DNA from: Candidatus Curtissbacteria bacterium
GTDB lineage: Bacteria; Patescibacteriota; Microgenomatia; Curtissbacterales; GWA2-41-24
Length of the DNA stretch: 64,000 nucleotides
Reading direction: 5' to 3'
NCBI GenBank assembly: GCA_030647775.1
Contig: JAUSJC010000010.1
Span: 264,927-328,926, forward strand
Of the stretch, positions 4,071 to 48,734 are shown in pieces (position 1 is the first letter of the stretch; every line of letters starts with the position of its first letter). The position numbers and the translations under genes were made by a program. The notes beneath the pieces were generated by a model. That model did not search any database. It was not told where the DNA came from and was given only the letters and a program-made list of their open reading frames with translations.

Positions 4071-4991
4071 GTGGCAAAACTCGCTGCGTTAGTAATTTCC
4101 TTCCTAGCCCTTTTCGTTTTTGCGGAACTTGTTTTCGCCGAAAATCTTCTTTTGAACCCATCATTCGAGGATACTACCGGCGGTTCTCCAAACTCATGGA
4201 CTAAAAATGTAAGCACAGCTACTTTGTCTACGTCAACTACCGCCAAAGCTGGTACAGTGTCAGCGTCAATCAATAAAACAAATAGTACAACTGGGCTAAT
4301 CTACTTATATCAAGATATTGATGTGGAACCGGACGCCTTTTATTCTTTGTCCGGTTATGCAATTAAGAATAGTCCTAATTTTAGCTGGGTGATTTTACGT
4401 ATAAGCTGGAGAAGTTCTAGCGGGGAAATTAGTCAAACCGATTCCCCTCGATTAACATCTGATTCGTCTGATTTCCAATCGCTGAAAATAGATTCAGTAC
4501 AAGCGCCAAGCCAGGCGATAAAGGCCAGAATTGAACTCGCCGCCAATATTGTAACTGCTAATCCTAACAATCCAGCCCTTTTTGATGATGTAGATTTTTC
4601 CCAGATTCCGGCGCCCAACCAACCAACCTCTACACTTGCACCAATGTCTTCACCCACACCTCTTAAATCTCCGTCGCCAACCCCAACTGCTTTGCCAAAA
4701 TCTCCGACACCATCACCCCTAAAATCACCGGCGCCTGCTCCGCAAGTCTTAGCCGAATCTTCCCAAAGCGCCGCGCCGTCGGCCAGCCCAAGTTCATCTC
4801 CGGCATCAAACCAACAAAGCCCTCTGGACACAATTAAAAATAACCCCAAAACTGCTTTAATCCTTGTCGGCTCCGGCCTTATTTTAATCGGTTTATCATC
4901 GGCTTTTTATGTGTGGTATTCTAAGCTCTTGGGAAAAGGTCCAATAAAAAATGCCGAAGGCACTGAGCGAAGTCGAAGTGAAGACGATTAA
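4071..4991 (+). CDS. Cell-surface protein: signal peptide, CBM4/9-like domain, Pro/Ser/Thr-rich linker, C-terminal TM anchor
   Basis: The N-terminus reads MAKLAALVISFLALFVFA then NLLLNPSFEDT, which is CBM4/9-like. Next comes a low-complexity SPSPTPTALPKSPTPSP linker and a C-terminal hydrophobic helix. The C-terminal TERSRSEDD tail is encoded by a repeat motif. Confidence 0.55.
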   Translation: MAKLAALVISFLALFVFAELVFAENLLLNPSFEDTTGGSPNSWTKNVSTATLSTSTTAKAGTVSASINKTNSTTGLIYLYQDIDVEPDAFYSLSGYAIKNSPNFSWVILRISWRSSSGEISQTDSPRLTSDSSDFQSLKIDSVQAPSQAIKARIELAANIVTANPNNPALFDDVDFSQIPAPNQPTSTLAPMSSPTPLKSPSPTPTALPKSPTPSPLKSPAPAPQVLAESSQSAAPSASPSSSPASNQQSPLDTIKNNPKTALILVGSGLILIGLSSAFYVWYSKLLGKGPIKNAEGTERSRSEDD

Positions 4992-6156
4992 AATATCAAA
5001 GTCCGAAACACAAACCCAAAAACTCGGGGAAACTCTTGGGAAGTCATTAAAAGCCGGGGATATTGTTGCCCTGTATGGCGATCTTGGTGCCGGCAAGACC
5101 GTTTTTGTTAAAGGTATCGCCAAAGGCCTGGGCATTAAAAAGAGAATTCTCTCGCCGACCTTTGTCTTTATACGTTCTTACCCGCTTACGGGTGAAAAGC
5201 AGTTTTATCATGTCGATCTTTATCGCGGCCAAAGCCTTGAAGATTTTGAAGCGCTGGGGCTTGAAGAACTATTTTCCAAAAATAACATTGTTGTTTTGGA
5301 ATGGGCTGGGAAAATTGCTAAAATATTGCCTCAAAAACGGATCGATATCAATATAGAAAAAGTCGAAGATACTGAGCGTAGTCGAAGTAAAGATGAAAAT
5401 ACAAGAAAAATCACCATCACTTCACCTGTCATTGCGAGCGCAGCGAAGCAATCTCATAACGAGTCTTCGAGTTACAAGCGCTCTTATATTGTTCGAGCGA
5501 AGTCGAGAACTTCCTCTTCTGTCATCCTGAACTCGTTTCAGGATCTTAAAAAAGTCGTAGATCCTGAGCAAAGTCGAAGGGCCGCCTCCATTTTAAAATC
5601 TGGCGGTGTCGTTATTTTCCCGACCGATACGGTTTACGGTATTGGCTGTAGGTACGACGATAAGGACGCCCTCGACCGTATCTATAAAATTAAGTCAAGG
5701 CCAAAAGACGTACTGTTTCCCATTCTTGTATCAAGCGTCAAACAGGTCGAACGTTTAGCTATCATTACTCCCTCCGCCCGCGAGTTGATAGAAAAATATT
5801 GGCCCGGCGGCCTAACAATAATTCTCTCCACCCGTCATCCTGAACAATGTCATCCTGAACTCGATTCAGGATCTGTAATTGTTTCAGGACTCAATCAAAA
5901 AATCGGTTTCCGCATGCCGGACCACCAAGAAATCTTATCGATGATCGATCTTGTCGGTGTCCCAATAATCGGTACCTCCGCCAATTTCCATGGGCAGTCG
6001 TCCGCAGCGTCTTTTGAAGATCTGGATCCTAAACTCATTAAGCTCGCCGATTTTGTTATCAAAGGTACCTGCCGTAAGGGTGTAGAATCAACAGTAGTCG
6101 ATGCAACTGCAAACCATTTAAAAATCTTAAGACAAGGAGCAGTCACACTACGATGA
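4951..6156 (+). CDS. tRNA t6A biosynthesis: TsaE (P-loop ATPase) domain, repeat-derived linker, TsaC/YrdC/Sua5 domain, all in one continuous ORF
   Basis: The N-terminal 150 aa match TsaE/YjeE (GDLGAGKTVFVKGIAKGL). Residues from about 210 match TsaC/YrdC (SGGVVIFPTDTVYGIGC, GFRMPDH, GTSANFHGQ). The roughly 60-aa stretch between them is encoded by a repeat element with no stop codon. No ATG, GTG or TTG lies in frame ahead of the TsaC domain, so a separate tsaC start is not visible. Confidence 0.7.
   Translation: MPKALSEVEVKTIKISKSETQTQKLGETLGKSLKAGDIVALYGDLGAGKTVFVKGIAKGLGIKKRILSPTFVFIRSYPLTGEKQFYHVDLYRGQSLEDFEALGLEELFSKNNIVVLEWAGKIAKILPQKRIDINIEKVEDTERSRSKDENTRKITITSPVIASAAKQSHNESSSYKRSYIVRAKSRTSSSVILNSFQDLKKVVDPEQSRRAASILKSGGVVIFPTDTVYGIGCRYDDKDALDRIYKIKSRPKDVLFPILVSSVKQVERLAIITPSARELIEKYWPGGLTIILSTRHPEQCHPELDSGSVIVSGLNQKIGFRMPDHQEILSMIDLVGVPIIGTSANFHGQSSAASFEDLDPKLIKLADFVIKGTCRKGVESTVVDATANHLKILRQGAVTLR
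5420..5585. repeat. Palindromic repeat element, copy A (in-frame linker between the TsaE and TsaC domains)
   Basis: It contains gtcattgcgagcgcagcgaagcaatctc and the hairpin atcctgaactcgtttcaggat (5523-5543), followed by a gagcaaagtcgaag motif. It is homologous to the elements at 5835-5876 and 6490-6648. Confidence 0.6.
5835..5876. repeat. Repeat element fragment, copy B, in-frame inside the TsaC domain
   Basis: gtcatcctgaacaatgtcatcctgaactcgattcaggatctg, with the hairpin atcctgaa-ctcga-ttcaggat at 5852-5872. It encodes HPEQCHPELDSGS at a loop position that is longer than in E. coli YrdC. Confidence 0.55.
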
Positions 6157-7742: not shown

Positions 7743-8180
7743 TTAGACAAGAGTTTTCTTTTTGTGACCCAACCTGTATTTAATTACCTCTTCTGGTAAA
7801 AAAGCTTTTCTTGGAGTCCCCAATCTATAAAGCGCGCTTTCTATATCTTGCCAGAATTGCCGACCCGCTTCAGTCATTACAATTTTATTAATTGCAAGTT
7901 TATATCCATTATTCATCTTCAATATTAAAGATACTTTTGAAATAGTTTCTCCCGAAACCTTTAGGAGATTTTTAATAGTCCCGTAATCTGTTGATTTCAA
8001 AAGCAAAACAGCAATAGCCAACCGTTTGGCCAGAACTATTCTTTCTACCGGAGTAAGGAGATCATTTAAAAATATTTGAATATCTTTCTTATCTTTGAGC
8101 TGGGATATGGCTTCCCACAGAGTTTCAAAAATCTGTTCTTCAATTCTTTTATCCAACAACCGTCTTGAAACTTGTGACAC
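7743..8180 (-). CDS. TrpR-related YerC/YecD-family HTH protein
   Basis: 145 aa. The KDKKDIQIFLNDLLTPVERIVLAKRLAIAV segment matches the YerC/TrpR-like pattern KDKEE..FL.DLLTP.E....R. It starts with GTG at 8180-8178. Confidence 0.45.
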   Translation of the reverse strand: MSQVSRRLLDKRIEEQIFETLWEAISQLKDKKDIQIFLNDLLTPVERIVLAKRLAIAVLLLKSTDYGTIKNLLKVSGETISKVSLILKMNNGYKLAINKIVMTEAGRQFWQDIESALYRLGTPRKAFLPEEVIKYRLGHKKKTLV

Positions 8181-19325: not shown

Positions 19326-20831
19326 ATGCGCATTGAAAAAAAGAAATTAGAATTAATTATTATTGCCGCGGTCATTTTGATTGCAGTTTTTTTTCGCTTC
19401 TGGCAGATTCGTGATTATGTCGTCTTCTTGGGTGACGAAGGCCGCGATATGCTCGTTATGAGAAATATGATTCTGGAAAAACGTCCGGTTTTTCTTGGCC
19501 CGACAGCCTCTGTCGGGGGTTTTTACCTTGGCCCGATTTATTACTGGATGGCAGCTCCGTTTTTGGCACTTTGGCGCTTTGACCCCGTTGGCCCTTCCGT
19601 TATGGTTGCCACGTTCGGAGTCGCTACTGTCGTCCTTCTTTATAAGTTTTTAAGAGAAGTGGCAGGATTTTGGCCGGCAACTCTTGCCAGTCTTCTTTAT
19701 GCCATTGCCCCTTTAATTGTTCGGTACTCCAGGTCATCTTGGAACCCCAACCCTCTACCATTTTTCGCCCTTCTGCAAATCTATTCTGTCTATTTGGCAA
19801 TTACCAGGAAAAAGCCTTTGCTTTTTTTGGTTTCCGGTTTATGTTTTGGGGTAGCGATCCAACTGCATTATTTGGCGATTTCTCTTATTCCGATCTCGAT
19901 TGCAATAATCGTCTTAAATTCAAATTTCAAAAGTTGGCCCAAGGCGATTGCCTTGACATTTATCGGTGCTTTTATTACTTTTTCTCCTTTTTTAATATTC
20001 GAAGCAAGGCACGGTTTTCCAAACTTTCACACGATTTTAGAATTTGTAACCCGCAAAACGACTCACGGTTATCAAAGTCCGAATATAATCTGGGTTATTT
20101 CGAACTTTGGCAATATTTTATTGGAAGATATTGCAAAATTTAGCGGAACCATTCTTACTAAAGTTGCTTTTTGGAGTTTAAGCTTCGGCAGTATATTTAT
20201 TCTTGCCAAAAATTGGCAAAACGAGAAAAAGCGCCTTATCGGTTCAATTTGTGTCATTTGGTTTTTGGGGGGCTTGGCAGTTCTAAGGTTCTACTCCGGC
20301 CAGATATTCGATTACTATTTCGGTTTTATGTTTCCCGCGCCGTTTTTTGCGTTTGGTGTTGTTGTAGGGGAGTATTGGCAAAAGAATACTTTCAAGTTAA
20401 TTTTTATTTCCTTTACAATTTTTGCATCGGTACTATTTTTAAATAGAGGTTTTTGGCAAAGCCCCCCCAACCGTTTAATTAATCAGACTCAAACTATTGC
20501 GGATTATGTAATACAAAAGTCTCAAGGCGAGCCTTTCAATTTCGCTCTAATGTCAGACCATAATAGCGACCACGCGTATCGCTATTTTCTGGAAATCAGA
20601 GGGGCAAAACCTGTACAATTAGAAACGATGGTTACAGACCAGCTTCTAATAGTCTGTGAATCAAAAAAATGTTCCCCGCTTGGATATCCAAGCTGGGAGG
20701 TAGCCGGTTTTGGTAGAGGAGAAGTAAATGACCAGTGGGAACTGCCAAATTTTGGAATCCGGATTTTTCGTCTGACTCATTGGGCAGGTGCTCCCAACCC
20801 GGCCGGTAAACCCGCAGTCAAAGAACAATGA
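19326..20831 (+). CDS. Polytopic GT-C-type membrane glycosyltransferase (ArnT/PMT-like)
   Basis: Has at least 11 TM helices. The first loop reads VVFLGDEGRDMLV, placing the acidic motif where GT-C enzymes carry it. Follows the GtrB-GtrA fusion gene. Confidence 0.6.
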   Translation: MRIEKKKLELIIIAAVILIAVFFRFWQIRDYVVFLGDEGRDMLVMRNMILEKRPVFLGPTASVGGFYLGPIYYWMAAPFLALWRFDPVGPSVMVATFGVATVVLLYKFLREVAGFWPATLASLLYAIAPLIVRYSRSSWNPNPLPFFALLQIYSVYLAITRKKPLLFLVSGLCFGVAIQLHYLAISLIPISIAIIVLNSNFKSWPKAIALTFIGAFITFSPFLIFEARHGFPNFHTILEFVTRKTTHGYQSPNIIWVISNFGNILLEDIAKFSGTILTKVAFWSLSFGSIFILAKNWQNEKKRLIGSICVIWFLGGLAVLRFYSGQIFDYYFGFMFPAPFFAFGVVVGEYWQKNTFKLIFISFTIFASVLFLNRGFWQSPPNRLINQTQTIADYVIQKSQGEPFNFALMSDHNSDHAYRYFLEIRGAKPVQLETMVTDQLLIVCESKKCSPLGYPSWEVAGFGRGEVNDQWELPNFGIRIFRLTHWAGAPNPAGKPAVKEQ

Positions 20832-21748
20832 AATTAAAACACATTATATCTTCAAAACAGTTCGAGAAAAGTTTTATCCGATCTATTTTTGAAAAGGCCG
20901 ATCAGATTAAAAGCGGCAGATATAATAAAAATATTCTTGCCGGTAGAATAATGGCGACACTCTTTTACGAACCCTCAACAAGGACAAGATTTTCTTTCGA
21001 GTCGGCGATGCAAAGGCTTGGCGGCAGCGTCATCTCAACCGAAAATGCATACCAGTTCTCTTCCGCTGCCAAAGGGGAAACAATTGAGGATACTATTAGG
21101 ATTGTAAGCTCCTACAGCGATGTCATTGTCTTGAGGCACGACACGCTCGGCGCTTCCCAAGTAGCGGCAAGTCTTTCAAAAGTCCCCGTTATCAACGCCG
21201 GGGACGGAAATGGTGAGCACCCCACACAAGCGCTTCTCGATCTTTATACAATTTTCTCAAAATTCAAAACCCCCGATTTTACAGTTATCATGATTGGTGA
21301 TCTTCTAAACGGAAGAACAATTCACTCGCTATCGTATCTACTTTCACTTTACCCAAAAATCAAAATTATTTTTGTTTCACCAAAAGCGCTGGCCATTCCC
21401 AAAACCTTAAAGAGTCATTTAATTGCTACCAAAATTGATTTTACCGAAACAGAAGATTTTGATTTTGCCTTAAAGAAAGCGGACGTAATTTACCAGACAA
21501 GAATTCAAAAAGAAAGGTTTAAAACAAAAAACGATTATAAGAAATATTTTGGAAGGTTCATCATTGATGAAAGTACTTTGCAAAAGATTAAACCAAGAAG
21601 TATCATTATGCACCCTCTGCCAAGAATTAACGAAATTGCACCTAGTGTTGATTCTGACCCCCGTGCCCTTTACTTCCAGCAGGCGGCAAATGGCGTTTAC
21701 ATTAGAATGGCCCTTCTGCTTTATCTCCTTGGCCCGAAAAATCAATGA
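20828..21748 (+). CDS. pyrB: Aspartate carbamoyltransferase catalytic subunit
   Basis: STRTRFSFE, HPTQALLD (ATCase-type HPTQ rather than the OTC-type HPCQ) and HPLPR. Confidence 0.85.
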   Translation: MKLKHIISSKQFEKSFIRSIFEKADQIKSGRYNKNILAGRIMATLFYEPSTRTRFSFESAMQRLGGSVISTENAYQFSSAAKGETIEDTIRIVSSYSDVIVLRHDTLGASQVAASLSKVPVINAGDGNGEHPTQALLDLYTIFSKFKTPDFTVIMIGDLLNGRTIHSLSYLLSLYPKIKIIFVSPKALAIPKTLKSHLIATKIDFTETEDFDFALKKADVIYQTRIQKERFKTKNDYKKYFGRFIIDESTLQKIKPRSIIMHPLPRINEIAPSVDSDPRALYFQQAANGVYIRMALLLYLLGPKNQ

Positions 21749-45877: not shown

Positions 45878-46637
45878 TATTCTTTGGGAATCTTCCAAAA
45901 AGCCTAAAATTATCGTTGTTCTGCCTGCATATTTTGCCGAAAAAACCGTCAGAAAAACCTACGACGATCTCCCAAAAGATCTTATATCCGAAATCATCTT
46001 AGTCGACGACGCCTCAAAGGATAAAACCGTAGAGGTTGCTAAAAAGCTTGGCCTTTCGGTTTATATCCACCCCAAGAATAAGGGTTATGGTGGAAACCAA
46101 AAGACTTGCTACGATCAGGCGCTAAAGAGAAATCCCAGCGTTGTTGTTATGGTCCATCCCGATTATCAGTACGACCCCAAACTTTTAGGAATACTCTGTG
46201 AGCCAATCGTCAACGGTAGGGTAGATATAATGTTGGGTTCGCGAATTCAGAGCCGGCGCCAAGCCTTAGCAGGCGGTATGCCGCTTTATAAATATTTTTT
46301 CAATAGGTTCCTAACAATGCTGGAAAACATAGTTCTTGGAATAAATCTATCAGAGTTTCATACTGGTTACAGAGCATTTTCCTCCAAATCTTTAAACATG
46401 TTACCTTATCACAAATTTTCTGACGACTTCGTCTTCGATCAGGAGATTTTAATTTCGGCAGTCTCTTATGGTTTAACAATTTCAGACACGCCGGTTCCAT
46501 GCAAGTATTTTCCGGAAGCATCATCAATAAACTTTAAAAGATCAACTACATATGGGATCATGACTCTTTGGACACTTTCTCTTTATGTCATGCACCAGGC
46601 AGGTTTAATAAAAAGTAAATTCTTCAAGAAGATCTAA
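45849..46637 (+). CDS. GT2 glycosyltransferase (Dpm1/GtrB-like)
   Basis: IIVVLPAYFAE and the D-x-D of VDDASKD. Confidence 0.7.
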   Translation: MLLRNSKNHNILWESSKKPKIIVVLPAYFAEKTVRKTYDDLPKDLISEIILVDDASKDKTVEVAKKLGLSVYIHPKNKGYGGNQKTCYDQALKRNPSVVVMVHPDYQYDPKLLGILCEPIVNGRVDIMLGSRIQSRRQALAGGMPLYKYFFNRFLTMLENIVLGINLSEFHTGYRAFSSKSLNMLPYHKFSDDFVFDQEILISAVSYGLTISDTPVPCKYFPEASSINFKRSTTYGIMTLWTLSLYVMHQAGLIKSKFFKKI

Positions 46638-47637
46638 ATCTCTCAAGTAATTTCAAGAAGCCTGTTTTTGTTTCCTCCGTTACAGTAATTAGGACCAAGC
46701 CTTCGTTGGGTTGTCCGTAAACGATTCGCCACCCAAGCGGCGCCAAAATTGTTGCCGGCAAAACTGCGAGGTCTTCTTCACCAATAATTTCTATGACAGA
46801 ACCGTCATTCTTATTAGCAATATTTTCCTTTATACTTCTCGAAAGTTTCCGCTTGATTGTCGAAGCTGGATTTTGAATAATCTCAAACTTTTGGTTCTTT
46901 GAAAACCCCAAATCCGCAATATCCTCAAAAATCTTTTTTCTCCCGACCTTTAAATCAACAATCGAAAGCCTTGGCACAATTCCCTTTTTCAGAAAATTGA
47001 AAGTTGTTTCATCTCCAACAGCGATGACTTTACTTGGTAAGACTCGAGATTTAAGGTCGTCAATATCCCCAAAGAGTTCCCCGTGTGGCACCGAAAGTTC
47101 AATACGCAGGTTTTCCGGCAGATAATAATCCTTATTGCCTATTTTTGAAAAGTAACCGCTGCCGTCTCGATCGATTTCCCCAAGACTTATTCTGCTTGAA
47201 GAAATAGGTTTATTATCATCTGCCATAACAATTGGGAACACTAAAACTTTCAAAGAGGCAAGCCCCAGCCGTGTTCTTTTCTTGTTAATCAAAGCCGCTC
47301 CTTCCTGTGTGAGTTTGGTTACGGCAATCCCATCAATTGTTATATCTGAAACTGTACTGCCGAAGACATCGTCAAGTAAAATCGTTTTTGACCGTTTGTC
47401 AAAACCTTTCGCCCTTAAATAATTATTTAGCTCTGCCAACCGCAGCTTGAGAGGCCGGACGTTTAATTTTTCGCTTGATATAAATTTATCGGTTGTAATC
47501 CCAATAGAAACAGCCGCCGCTTTGGAAAAGGCAAAATCCAAAAAAGCTTTATGTCCCAGATGTAAATAATCAAAGGTTCCGCCAAGTGCCAAATGATTAA
47601 ATGGGTACCCCATAAATGTTAATCTTAGCTCCCCCAT
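46624..47637 (-). CDS. Bifunctional archaeal-type PPAT / DUF359 (GTP-dependent dephospho-CoA kinase-like) protein
   Basis: The N-terminal half has a cytidylyltransferase fold with the HxGH motif (GGTFDYLHLGH). The C-terminal half carries GDETTF and GEEDLAVLPA, which I recall as DUF359 signatures. Start taken at the internal ATG (MGELRL) to avoid overlap with the convergent... rather, the divergent pyrC-like gene. Confidence 0.55.
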   Translation of the reverse strand: MGELRLTFMGYPFNHLALGGTFDYLHLGHKAFLDFAFSKAAAVSIGITTDKFISSEKLNVRPLKLRLAELNNYLRAKGFDKRSKTILLDDVFGSTVSDITIDGIAVTKLTQEGAALINKKRTRLGLASLKVLVFPIVMADDNKPISSSRISLGEIDRDGSGYFSKIGNKDYYLPENLRIELSVPHGELFGDIDDLKSRVLPSKVIAVGDETTFNFLKKGIVPRLSIVDLKVGRKKIFEDIADLGFSKNQKFEIIQNPASTIKRKLSRSIKENIANKNDGSVIEIIGEEDLAVLPATILAPLGWRIVYGQPNEGLVLITVTEETKTGFLKLLERFRSS

Positions 47638-47660
47638 CTTAAATTTGCTAGAATTAACTC

Positions 47661-48734
47661 GTGTCCAAGCTTGACAAAATTCTGAAATTACCAGGCTTGG
47701 TTGATGTCCATGTTCACCTTCGGGAACCCGGAGCAACCCAAAAAGAAGATTTCCGAACCGGAACCATGGCAGCTGTCGCTGGTGGTTATACCCAGATTTT
47801 AGATATGCCCAATAACACACCGCCAACAACAAGTCCTAATGCTCTAAATCAAAAAATTGATTTGGCAAAGGGTAAAATTTGGTGCGATCTAGGTTTTAAT
47901 TTCGGAGCAACTGCCTCTTCCACAAAATATTTTAGAAAGATTGAGAATAAAGTTTTCGGCCTTAAAGTTTATATGAATCAAACAACCGGACCGCTTCTTG
48001 TCGAGAGCGAAGAAGATCGGGATTTGATATTCAAATCATGGCCTTCTTCTTTACCGATTATGGTTCACGCAGAAGGGGAGACCGTGGAAATAGCTATCAA
48101 GCTTGCTAAAAAATACCATAAATCACTTCACGTTTGTCATGTAACGGCAGATCAAATTAATGCAATCGAAAACGCAAAAAAGGAAAACGTTTTGATAAGC
48201 TGTGAAGTTTGTCCCCATCACCTTTTTTTGAATCAATTTGACATTCAAAAACTGGGGCCGTTTGGTTTAATGAAACCGCCGCTGCTTTCCAAAAAAGATC
48301 AAGAAAAACTCTGGAGTAAAATGGATAAAATCGATATGATATCAACCGACCACGCACCTCATACAAAAGAAGAAAAGATGAATCAGCCTGGCCCTAAGTT
48401 TGGTGTTCCCGGTCTTGAAACAACGCTCCCGCTTCTTTTAAAAGCCGTTGAAGAAGGCAGAATTTCGCTTGAAAGATTAATCGAAATGACCGCAACAAAT
48501 CCCAGGAAAATCTTTAAAATTCCAACTCAAAAAAATACTTACGTTCTTATCAATTCAAAAATTACTTATAAAATTTCTAACAAAAATTTATTTACAAAAT
48601 GCCGCTGGACTCCCTTTGTCGGTATGGAAGGCAGGGGAGAAATACAGAAAGTTATTATCCGCGGCAAAACGGTTTATGAGAATGGTAAATTTATTGGCAG
48701 ACCCATAGGCAAAGTAATCTATCCTCGTATTTAA
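47661..48734 (+). CDS. pyrC: Dihydroorotase-like amidohydrolase
   Basis: LPGLVDVHVHLREPG, DMPNNTPP, and STDHAPH. Confidence 0.8.
   Translation: MSKLDKILKLPGLVDVHVHLREPGATQKEDFRTGTMAAVAGGYTQILDMPNNTPPTTSPNALNQKIDLAKGKIWCDLGFNFGATASSTKYFRKIENKVFGLKVYMNQTTGPLLVESEEDRDLIFKSWPSSLPIMVHAEGETVEIAIKLAKKYHKSLHVCHVTADQINAIENAKKENVLISCEVCPHHLFLNQFDIQKLGPFGLMKPPLLSKKDQEKLWSKMDKIDMISTDHAPHTKEEKMNQPGPKFGVPGLETTLPLLLKAVEEGRISLERLIEMTATNPRKIFKIPTQKNTYVLINSKITYKISNKNLFTKCRWTPFVGMEGRGEIQKVIIRGKTVYENGKFIGRPIGKVIYPRI

Follow-up and report, generated by a model that had tools for sequence, protein, structure and literature searches.

A gene fusing archaeal-type phosphopantetheine adenylyltransferase and DUF359 dephospho-CoA kinase domains in a Curtissbacteria bacterium

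We analysed a 64,000-nucleotide stretch of DNA from a Candidatus Curtissbacteria bacterium of the Microgenomates group (contig JAUSJC010000010.1, positions 264,927 to 328,926 of the forward strand), referred to throughout as the window. Its minus strand carries, at 46624..47613, a gene in which an archaeal/eukaryotic-type phosphopantetheine adenylyltransferase (PPAT) domain is joined in one polypeptide to a DUF359 domain, the archaeal form of dephospho-coenzyme A kinase (DPCK). Its product is very probably a bifunctional enzyme that carries out the final two steps in the synthesis of coenzyme A (CoA), with the archaeal version of the enzyme used for each. An original prediction made from the DNA letters had proposed the same combination of an HxGH nucleotidyltransferase with DUF359, and saw in it an archaeal-style fused gene for the last two CoA steps in a bacterial genome. 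The fusion is borne out by matches above cutoff to PF04019, PF01467 and NF001985, by the catalytic residues and by an AlphaFold model. Both domains are of archaeal type and the window is bacterial, and the sequence and the model together suggest the two activities. Residue numbers below follow a 337-aa version of the gene; those of the preferred 329-aa protein are obtained by subtracting 8.

Results

The N-terminal PPAT domain

The N-terminal domain (res. 14–160; 47158..47598, minus strand) matches the NCBIfam model of archaeal-type PPAT, NF001985, with 135.3 bits against a cutoff of 104, and the match covers profile positions 5–151 of 157. The Pfam family CTP_transf_like (PF01467) is matched over residues 18–150 with an E-value of 2e-9 and 38.2 bits, against a cutoff of 21. 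A sequence match to the A. fulgidus entry 3do8, whose molecule name is phosphopantetheine adenylyltransferase, spans residues 16–159 (E 3.4e-21).

Two nucleotidyltransferase motifs are in place. The first, of the (H/T)xGH nucleotide-binding type, reads H-L-G-H (47551..47562, minus strand; translation verified) and ends the string GGTFDYLHLGH quoted in the original prediction. Its residues H26, G28 and H29 are invariant in a set of 17 homologs as well as in an alignment of 73 fused homologs that averages 35% column identity, and G20, F22 and D23 of the same domain are also invariant in the larger alignment. The second motif, of the ISSTxxR type, reads I-S-S-S-R-I (res. 145–150; 47188..47205, minus strand; translation verified) and aligns with ISSTRI of 3do8; I150 is invariant in the 73 homologs, and S146, S147 and R149 are kept in at least 90% of them.

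In bacteria, CoaD (a PPAT) and CoaE (a DPCK) catalyse the same two reactions, and CoaD has the general HxGH nucleotidyltransferase fold. Among the Pfam and NCBIfam matches of the fused protein at E ≤ 1 there is no CoaD family and no CoaE (P-loop DPCK) family, and the protein is without a P-loop kinase domain.

The C-terminal DUF359 domain

The C-terminal domain (res. 171–335; 46633..47127, minus strand) is a DUF359 / arCOG04076 DPCK domain, recognised through PF04019, NF041125 and the crystal structure 8jvc. The Pfam DUF359 profile (PF04019) matches residues 211–334 with an E-value of 1.8e-30 and 105.6 bits, against a cutoff of 25, over profile positions 1–125 of 126. The original prediction had staked its case on a DUF359 match within the C-terminal 200 aa, and this is where the match lies. 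The model NF041125, which describes the GTP-dependent DPCK of Thermococcales, matches residues 171–334 (E 1.7e-28), and the sequence of 8jvc, the GTP-dependent dephospho-CoA kinase of T. kodakarensis, matches residues 172–332 (E 6.7e-22). The two strings quoted earlier from this half, GDETTF and GEEDLAVLPA, are found at 46999-47016 and 46753-46782, respectively.

An alignment to 8jvc, mapped by script, places three aspartates at positions equivalent to Asp48, Asp67 and Asp125 of the T. kodakarensis enzyme TK1697. These are Asp209 in VGDETT (47011..47013), Asp228 in IVDLKV (46954..46956) and Asp289 in GEEDLAVLP (46771..46773), all encoded on the minus strand. In TK1697 the three residues are required for complementation in vivo, as judged from the mutants D48A, D67A and D125A (PMC6650551). 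D209, D228 and D289 are invariant in the 73 homologs, and so are G208, G286, E287, L290, Y307 and G308, which belong to the GD, GEEDL and YGQ motifs. Together with the N-terminal motifs, this pattern of invariance points to two active enzymes and not to a decayed domain.

One half could nonetheless be degenerate, for example if DUF359 had been kept as a regulatory or CoA-sensing domain and the protein were a PPAT only. Such a reading would accord with the product name given by GenBank/PGAP, which is 'pantetheine-phosphate adenylyltransferase' alone, and with an identity to TK1697 of only about 35%. We give it only a very slight chance of being right. The PGAP name merely reflects which hidden Markov model (HMM) passes its curated cutoff, the DUF359 profile is matched at full length, and the conservation of the three tested aspartates and of the GD, GEEDL and YGQ residues over 73 sequences indicates purifying selection on the active site.

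Predicted structure

An AlphaFold2 model computed from the 73-sequence alignment has a mean pLDDT of 95.5 and a pTM of 0.90. The model is confident and supports a match to solved archaeal enzymes in both halves. In Foldseek searches, the predicted DPCK half superimposes on the crystal structures of TK1697 (PDB 8jvc, 8jvg and 8jvf) with E-values of 3.7e-14 to 4.5e-9, template modelling (TM) scores, by target, of 0.82–0.87 and 33–36% identity. The N-terminal half matches the archaeal PPAT 3do8 with an E-value of 1.5e-8, TM scores (by target) of 0.79–0.84 and a root-mean-square deviation of 1.7–2.4 Å. Bacterial CoaD structures appear as remote fold neighbours only, with E-values of about 1e-4 and 12–17% identity to the model.

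These matches bear on whether the protein might be a two-domain enzyme of another pathway. The gene sits inside a large island of glycosyltransferase and sugar-nucleotide genes with no CoA genes nearby, and its sequence gives weak matches to models of rfaE domain II, glycerol-3-phosphate cytidylyltransferase and flavin adenine dinucleotide (FAD) synthetase. The N-terminal half could then be another HxGH nucleotidyltransferase, such as an FAD synthetase, a nicotinamide mononucleotide (NMN) adenylyltransferase or a sugar-phosphate/glycerol-phosphate cytidylyltransferase serving the glycan island, and DUF359 would act on another nucleotide-linked substrate. We consider this highly unlikely. The alternative models fall far short of the required scores (20.7 bits where the cutoff is 181.5, 13.6 where it is 165.4 and 13 where it is 27), whereas the PPAT model is above its cutoff over the whole domain and the best structural matches are of the PPAT type. 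The position in a glycan island is not kept in more distant Microgenomates, and the fused gene lies on the strand opposite to the island. Moreover, the partner DUF359 is the only characterized family of its kind, and its substrate is the product of PPAT.

Predicted function

As a bifunctional PPAT and DPCK, the protein would work in two steps. The Rossmann-like N-terminal domain, with its HLGH and ISSSRI motifs, would convert 4'-phosphopantetheine and ATP into dephospho-CoA. The DUF359 domain, which is predicted to have a thiamine-pyrophosphokinase-like fold with the acidic triad D209/D228/D289, would add a phosphate to the 3'-OH of dephospho-CoA and so yield CoA. By analogy with TK1697, the phosphate donor of this second step would probably be GTP, and dephospho-CoA may be handed over from one domain to the other. 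The cell could plausibly feed the enzyme with salvaged 4'-phosphopantetheine or pantetheine, without a full de novo pathway, since the 64-kb window is without upstream CoA genes and the genomes of the candidate phyla radiation (CPR), to which this bacterium belongs, are small.

Several points weigh against this assignment. The C-terminal domain scores 99.3 bits with NF041125, whose clade-specific equivalog cutoff is 300, and the Thermococcales equivalog model NF041124 gives 75 bits against a cutoff of 290. As NF001985 is a 'subfamily' model only and both equivalog scores fall short, there is no equivalog-level assignment for the protein, which is expected for distant relatives. Because NF041125 is specific to its clade, the shortfall excludes membership in the Thermococcales equivalog only, and not in the DUF359 family. 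No other CoA-pathway gene (PanK, CoaBC or CoaE) is present in the 64-kb window or beside the homologs examined, so the genomic context gives no independent support. The predicted activities of the bacterial members are deduced from domains, residues and fold, the specificity for GTP would follow from a single characterized enzyme, TK1697, and the idea of salvage is drawn from the 64-kb window.

Gene boundaries and the divergent intergenic region

The open frame on the minus strand extends from 47832 down to a TGA codon at 46624-46626. An ATG at 47637 gives a protein of 337 aa (46624-47637), and a second in-frame ATG at 47613, 8 codons (24 nt) further downstream, gives one of 329 aa. The preferred coding sequence, 46624..47613, has a verified translation of 329 aa followed by the TGA stop, and its product is 100% identical to GenBank MDO8487447.1, named 'MAG: pantetheine-phosphate adenylyltransferase [Candidatus Curtissbacteria bacterium]'. 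The original prediction placed the gene at 46624-47637; the gene and its 3' end are real, and the start is probably at 47613 and not at 47637. Findings from the homologs lead us to this choice. In a 78% identical homolog (loci L001 and L002), the GTG start aligns with the ATG at 47613 of the window, and the stretch from a TAA further upstream to this GTG contains no ATG, GTG or TTG in frame. In addition, 11 of the 12 closest homologs begin at this position, with the sequence M-x-Y-x-F.

An N-terminus reading ELRLTF, shared by the window and a homologous protein (P0007), was considered as support for the start at 47637 and discarded, as L001 and L002 have no possible in-frame start there. Nor does ELRLTF represent coding conservation: in the window, L001 and L003, the codons upstream of 47613 are kept at the nucleotide level, without synonymous changes.

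The fused gene and a divergently oriented dihydroorotase gene are separated by a 47-bp intergenic region (47614..47660, assigned to neither strand), presumed to hold a bidirectional promoter and 5' leader. When the DNA of the window, L001 and L003, all from Curtissbacteria, is aligned, this region shows stronger conservation than the coding DNA on either side. The blocks TAATTCTAGCAAATTT and GGAGCTAAGATTAACATTT do not differ between the three genomes; the second comprises the bases upstream of 47613, and the coding sequences of the three differ freely. The region also contains a GGAG located 15 nt ahead of the start codon. A sigma-70 scan of the 47 bp returned no convincing consensus site beyond chance, a promoter and terminator scan likewise gave nothing beyond chance, and Rfam and tRNA scans of the window, with the 47-bp region included for Rfam, yielded no match. 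Given the conservation at the nucleotide level without synonymous change, and the start at 47613, the region is best read as a conserved non-coding control and leader region acting in both directions, and possibly as a regulatory element common to both genes.

Genomic setting

The window is plainly bacterial. It encodes a release factor, FtsE/FtsX, M23 peptidases, a TsaE-Sua5 fusion, rml genes, UDP-glucose dehydrogenases, a GDP-mannose dehydratase and a long run of GT2, PMT_2, YfhO and PTPS_related glycosyltransferase genes. Public records of PPAT and DPCK homologs do contain mis-binned or mislabelled sequences (the pair L053/L064, L062 and L026, described below), which raises the question of whether an archaeal fragment was mis-assembled or mis-binned into this CPR genome. 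We regard this as exceedingly improbable. The gene lies 46 kb into the 64-kb window of a 526,960-bp contig, its GC content is that of its surroundings (40.2% against 40.4% for the window), and 14 bp at its 3' end are shared with the neighbouring glycosyltransferase gene. The same arrangement is present in independent NCBI and JGI assemblies, with one Logan contig covering the dihydroorotase side only, and hundreds of CPR homologs exist.

Three independent assemblies of related Curtissbacteria (L001, L003 and L004) show the same layout of the locus: the fused gene lies on the opposite strand with a GT2 gene at its 3' end, and PMT_2/YfhO glycosyltransferase genes surround it. The divergent neighbour in the window is a dihydroorotase gene with a GTG start (47661..48734, plus strand; TIGR00857, 283.4 bits against a cutoff of 279.05), given here as context. 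It is also found in L003, in L004 and on the short contig L002, and in L001 its position holds a 324-aa gene without a Pfam match. In more distant Microgenomates, the fused gene has tRNA synthetases, GreA or conjugation-type genes as neighbours. As these neighbours are unrelated, there is no conserved operon around the fused gene. Near one homolog (L005), a 162-aa CTP_transf_like gene was examined as a bacterial CoaD and rejected, as it is RfaE domain II-like (TIGR02199, 111.7 bits against 38 for the PPAT model).

The fused gene had been described as the only sizeable minus-strand gene of the island, which holds for the interval from about 8.3 to 63 kb: the other minus-strand open reading frames (ORFs) of at least 120 aa in it all overlap plus-strand genes. 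Besides the fused gene, the window has just one real minus-strand gene, an ORF of the Trp-repressor family upstream of the glycan genes (7743-8180, minus strand; PF01371, E 1.4e-13). From about 11.4 to 63 kb, the plus strand presents some 50 kb of nearly unbroken same-strand genes for cell-envelope glycan synthesis. They include rmlABCD-like genes, two UDP-glucose/GDP-mannose dehydrogenases, a GDP-mannose dehydratase, many GT2 genes, a flippase-like Polysacc_synt_3 gene and at least nine large membrane proteins of the PMT_2, YfhO or PTPS_related families. This is an unusually large share for a genome of about 0.5 Mb or more. An aspartate/ornithine carbamoyltransferase-like gene (20828-21748, plus strand) and the dihydroorotase gene are scattered within this glycan region, 26 kb apart, each single and without a pyr operon; both belong to pyrimidine biosynthesis. 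In the TsaE-Sua5 fusion (ORF 4951-6156, plus strand), TsaE (PF02367, res. 17–143) is followed by Sua5/YciO/YrdC (PF01300, res. 214–396), so that two components of t6A tRNA modification are fused.

Distribution and phylogeny

A word-indexed search retrieved at least 120 homologs, nearly all of them 312–373 aa in length and with both Pfam domains, and the named homologs among the matches listed come from Curtiss-, Levy- or Daviesbacteria or from Microgenomates. An exhaustive search of 1.84 billion cluster representatives (50% identity clusters) gave 3,893 matches at E ≤ 1e-3 and 680 at E ≤ 1e-30, and nearly all of the best 150 are full-length. In a tblastn scan of GTDB species genomes, full-length fused matches occur in Levyibacteriota, Roizmanbacteria and other Patescibacteria, and also in Poseidoniales/Thalassarchaeaceae archaea (marine group II); most other archaea have a stand-alone PPAT or a stand-alone DPCK only. 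The window and loci L010-L031 each encode both domains in a single open frame. Taken together, these sequences describe the fusion as a trait inherited across the Microgenomates group of the CPR.

Outside the CPR, the GTDB scan gave no firm bacterial example of the fusion. Fused loci in metagenome-assembled genomes labelled 'Gammaproteobacteria', 'Pseudomonadales' or 'Vitreimonas', with 35–49% GC, were considered as such cases (L026, on DASPLQ010000012.1, L025, L018, L020 and L033), and their labels were treated as unreliable. L026, labelled 'Vitreimonas', is on a 1.41-Mb contig of 45% GC, and the nearest named relatives of an adjacent RarA-like protein are from Patescibacteria and Pacebacteria, with 70–73% identity. 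The organism label of L026 is wrong and the locus is really from the CPR; the other labels of this kind are probably wrong too. L025 and L026 group with the Patescibacteria lineage UBA1449 in the domain trees, and L018 has CPR-like neighbours. The fused gene of L033 may be frameshifted or a pseudogene, as it is split over two reading frames.

Contigs of similarly doubtful origin are found among the stand-alone genes. A stand-alone DPCK labelled 'Anaerolineales' (L053, JAIWAT010000064.1) was set aside as a bacterial case, since it is nearly identical to L064 of Methanosarcinales and probably mis-binned. The PPAT of L062, on a 1,020-bp contig labelled 'Nanoarchaeota', pairs with that of L017 (Roizmanbacteria) with 100% bootstrap. 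L053 and L062 appear to be mis-binned contigs rather than cases of transfer between domains of life. In L017, an open frame upstream of the fused gene contains an extra partial PPAT-like segment (HMM positions 3–83), which may be the remnant of a tandem duplication. The archaeal PPAT ORFs of L089 (Thermoplasmata) and L085 (Micrarchaeota) extend beyond the PPAT domain by 177 aa and 408 aa, respectively, with no match to the DPCK profile in the extension, and may be other PPAT fusions; NCBIfam NF002250, a PPAT/NTP phosphatase fusion, is a comparable case.

Rough neighbour-joining trees (100 bootstraps) were computed separately for the two domains. In both, the fusions of Poseidoniales make up a clade that is separate from the bacterial fusions, with 93% bootstrap for PPAT and 100% for DPCK. 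The bacterial fusions mostly cluster together with weak support, and deep nodes have less than 30% bootstrap, so no donor lineage can be named. The original prediction had proposed HMM searches followed by a phylogeny; both profiles match, and the trees leave these deep nodes poorly supported. Domain HMMs were also trained on the CPR sequences. With the PPAT model, stand-alone archaeal PPATs score 121–178 bits against 108–124 for the fused PPATs of Poseidoniales, and the highest stand-alone scores, 166–178 bits, belong to Bathyarchaeia and an Asgard sequence. With the DPCK model, stand-alone DPCKs score 129–153 bits, mostly higher than the 73–110 bits of the fused Poseidoniales domains. The fusions of CPR and Poseidoniales may have arisen independently, or the Poseidoniales sequences may be fast-evolving. 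With a separate Poseidoniales clade and its lower HMM scores, descent of the CPR fusion from the marine group II fusion is not demonstrated.

Discussion

The domain combination found here has a known counterpart. A fusion of PPAT with arCOG04076 in uncultured group II/III euryarchaeota was a clue in identifying the archaeal DPCK (Shimosaka et al. 2019, PMC6650551). In these Poseidoniales fusions, e.g., AIF21550.1 (PMC6650551), the same two domains stand in the same order within one polypeptide of about 320–370 aa. Their loci (L022, L024 and L027-L031) give full-length tblastn matches with 27–33% identity and the same catalytic motifs. They differ in that their host is an archaeon, whereas the host here is a CPR bacterium, and in that the Poseidoniales fusions stand apart from the bacterial ones in both domain trees.

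In Thermococcus, PPAT (TK2128) and DPCK (TK1697) are separate genes, unlike the fused gene described here, whose PPAT domain matches the archaeal PPAT models and whose scores do not reach the Thermococcales equivalog cutoffs. The eukaryotic enzyme COASY is likewise a PPAT/DPCK fusion, with a PPAT of archaeal/eukaryotic type and not of the bacterial CoaD type (cf. PMC6650551). Its kinase, however, is a P-loop DPCK of the CoaE type with a fold unrelated to DUF359, and the kinase halves of the two fusions are therefore analogous and not homologous.

Archaeal DPCK has been reported with an archaea-only distribution (PMC6650551), and the type of DPCK has been used to discriminate archaeal from bacterial CoA pathways (PMC7883664). 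In the literature library that we searched, no paper on DUF359/DPCK proteins in bacteria, CPR or Patescibacteria was found. In public records, the homologs are named 'pantetheine-phosphate adenylyltransferase', 'cytidyltransferase-like' or 'hypothetical', and the DPCK half is left unnamed. The gene is thus a bacterial member of a large family that is already deposited and half-annotated, and the same fusion has already been described in archaea.

The gene had been thought relevant to the phylogenetic placement of its host. The fusion is common to hundreds of lineages of the Microgenomates group, which removes this relevance. It reflects either a trait of the lineage or an old transfer between domains of life, is no sign of archaeal affinity, and leaves the position of the organism in the tree unchanged.

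For the biology of these bacteria, the immediate consequence concerns metabolic reconstruction. Reconstructions of CPR metabolism that search for CoaE would score the last CoA step as missing, and recognising the DUF359 half closes this apparent gap. A large bacterial clade with an archaeal DPCK also qualifies the view that this enzyme is confined to archaea (PMC6650551, PMC7883664), and its members offer a set of mesophilic homologs for the study of nucleotide specificity.

A bolder proposal, to which we give somewhat less than an even chance, is that CPR bacteria of the Microgenomates group may lack CoaD, CoaE and the upstream pathway, and make CoA only through the fused enzyme, from 4'-phosphopantetheine or pantetheine taken from a host or neighbour. 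If so, they would be the first bacterial clade known to depend on an 'archaeal' DPCK. This would contradict both the use of DPCK type as a discriminator of archaeal and bacterial pathways (PMC7883664) and the archaea-only distribution of the enzyme (PMC6650551), and it would point to an old exchange of genes between the domains of life, possibly with an independent fusion event. If only the last two CoA steps are kept, the organism is predicted to be a 4'-phosphopantetheine auxotroph, which would be a testable dependency for episymbiotic CPR bacteria.

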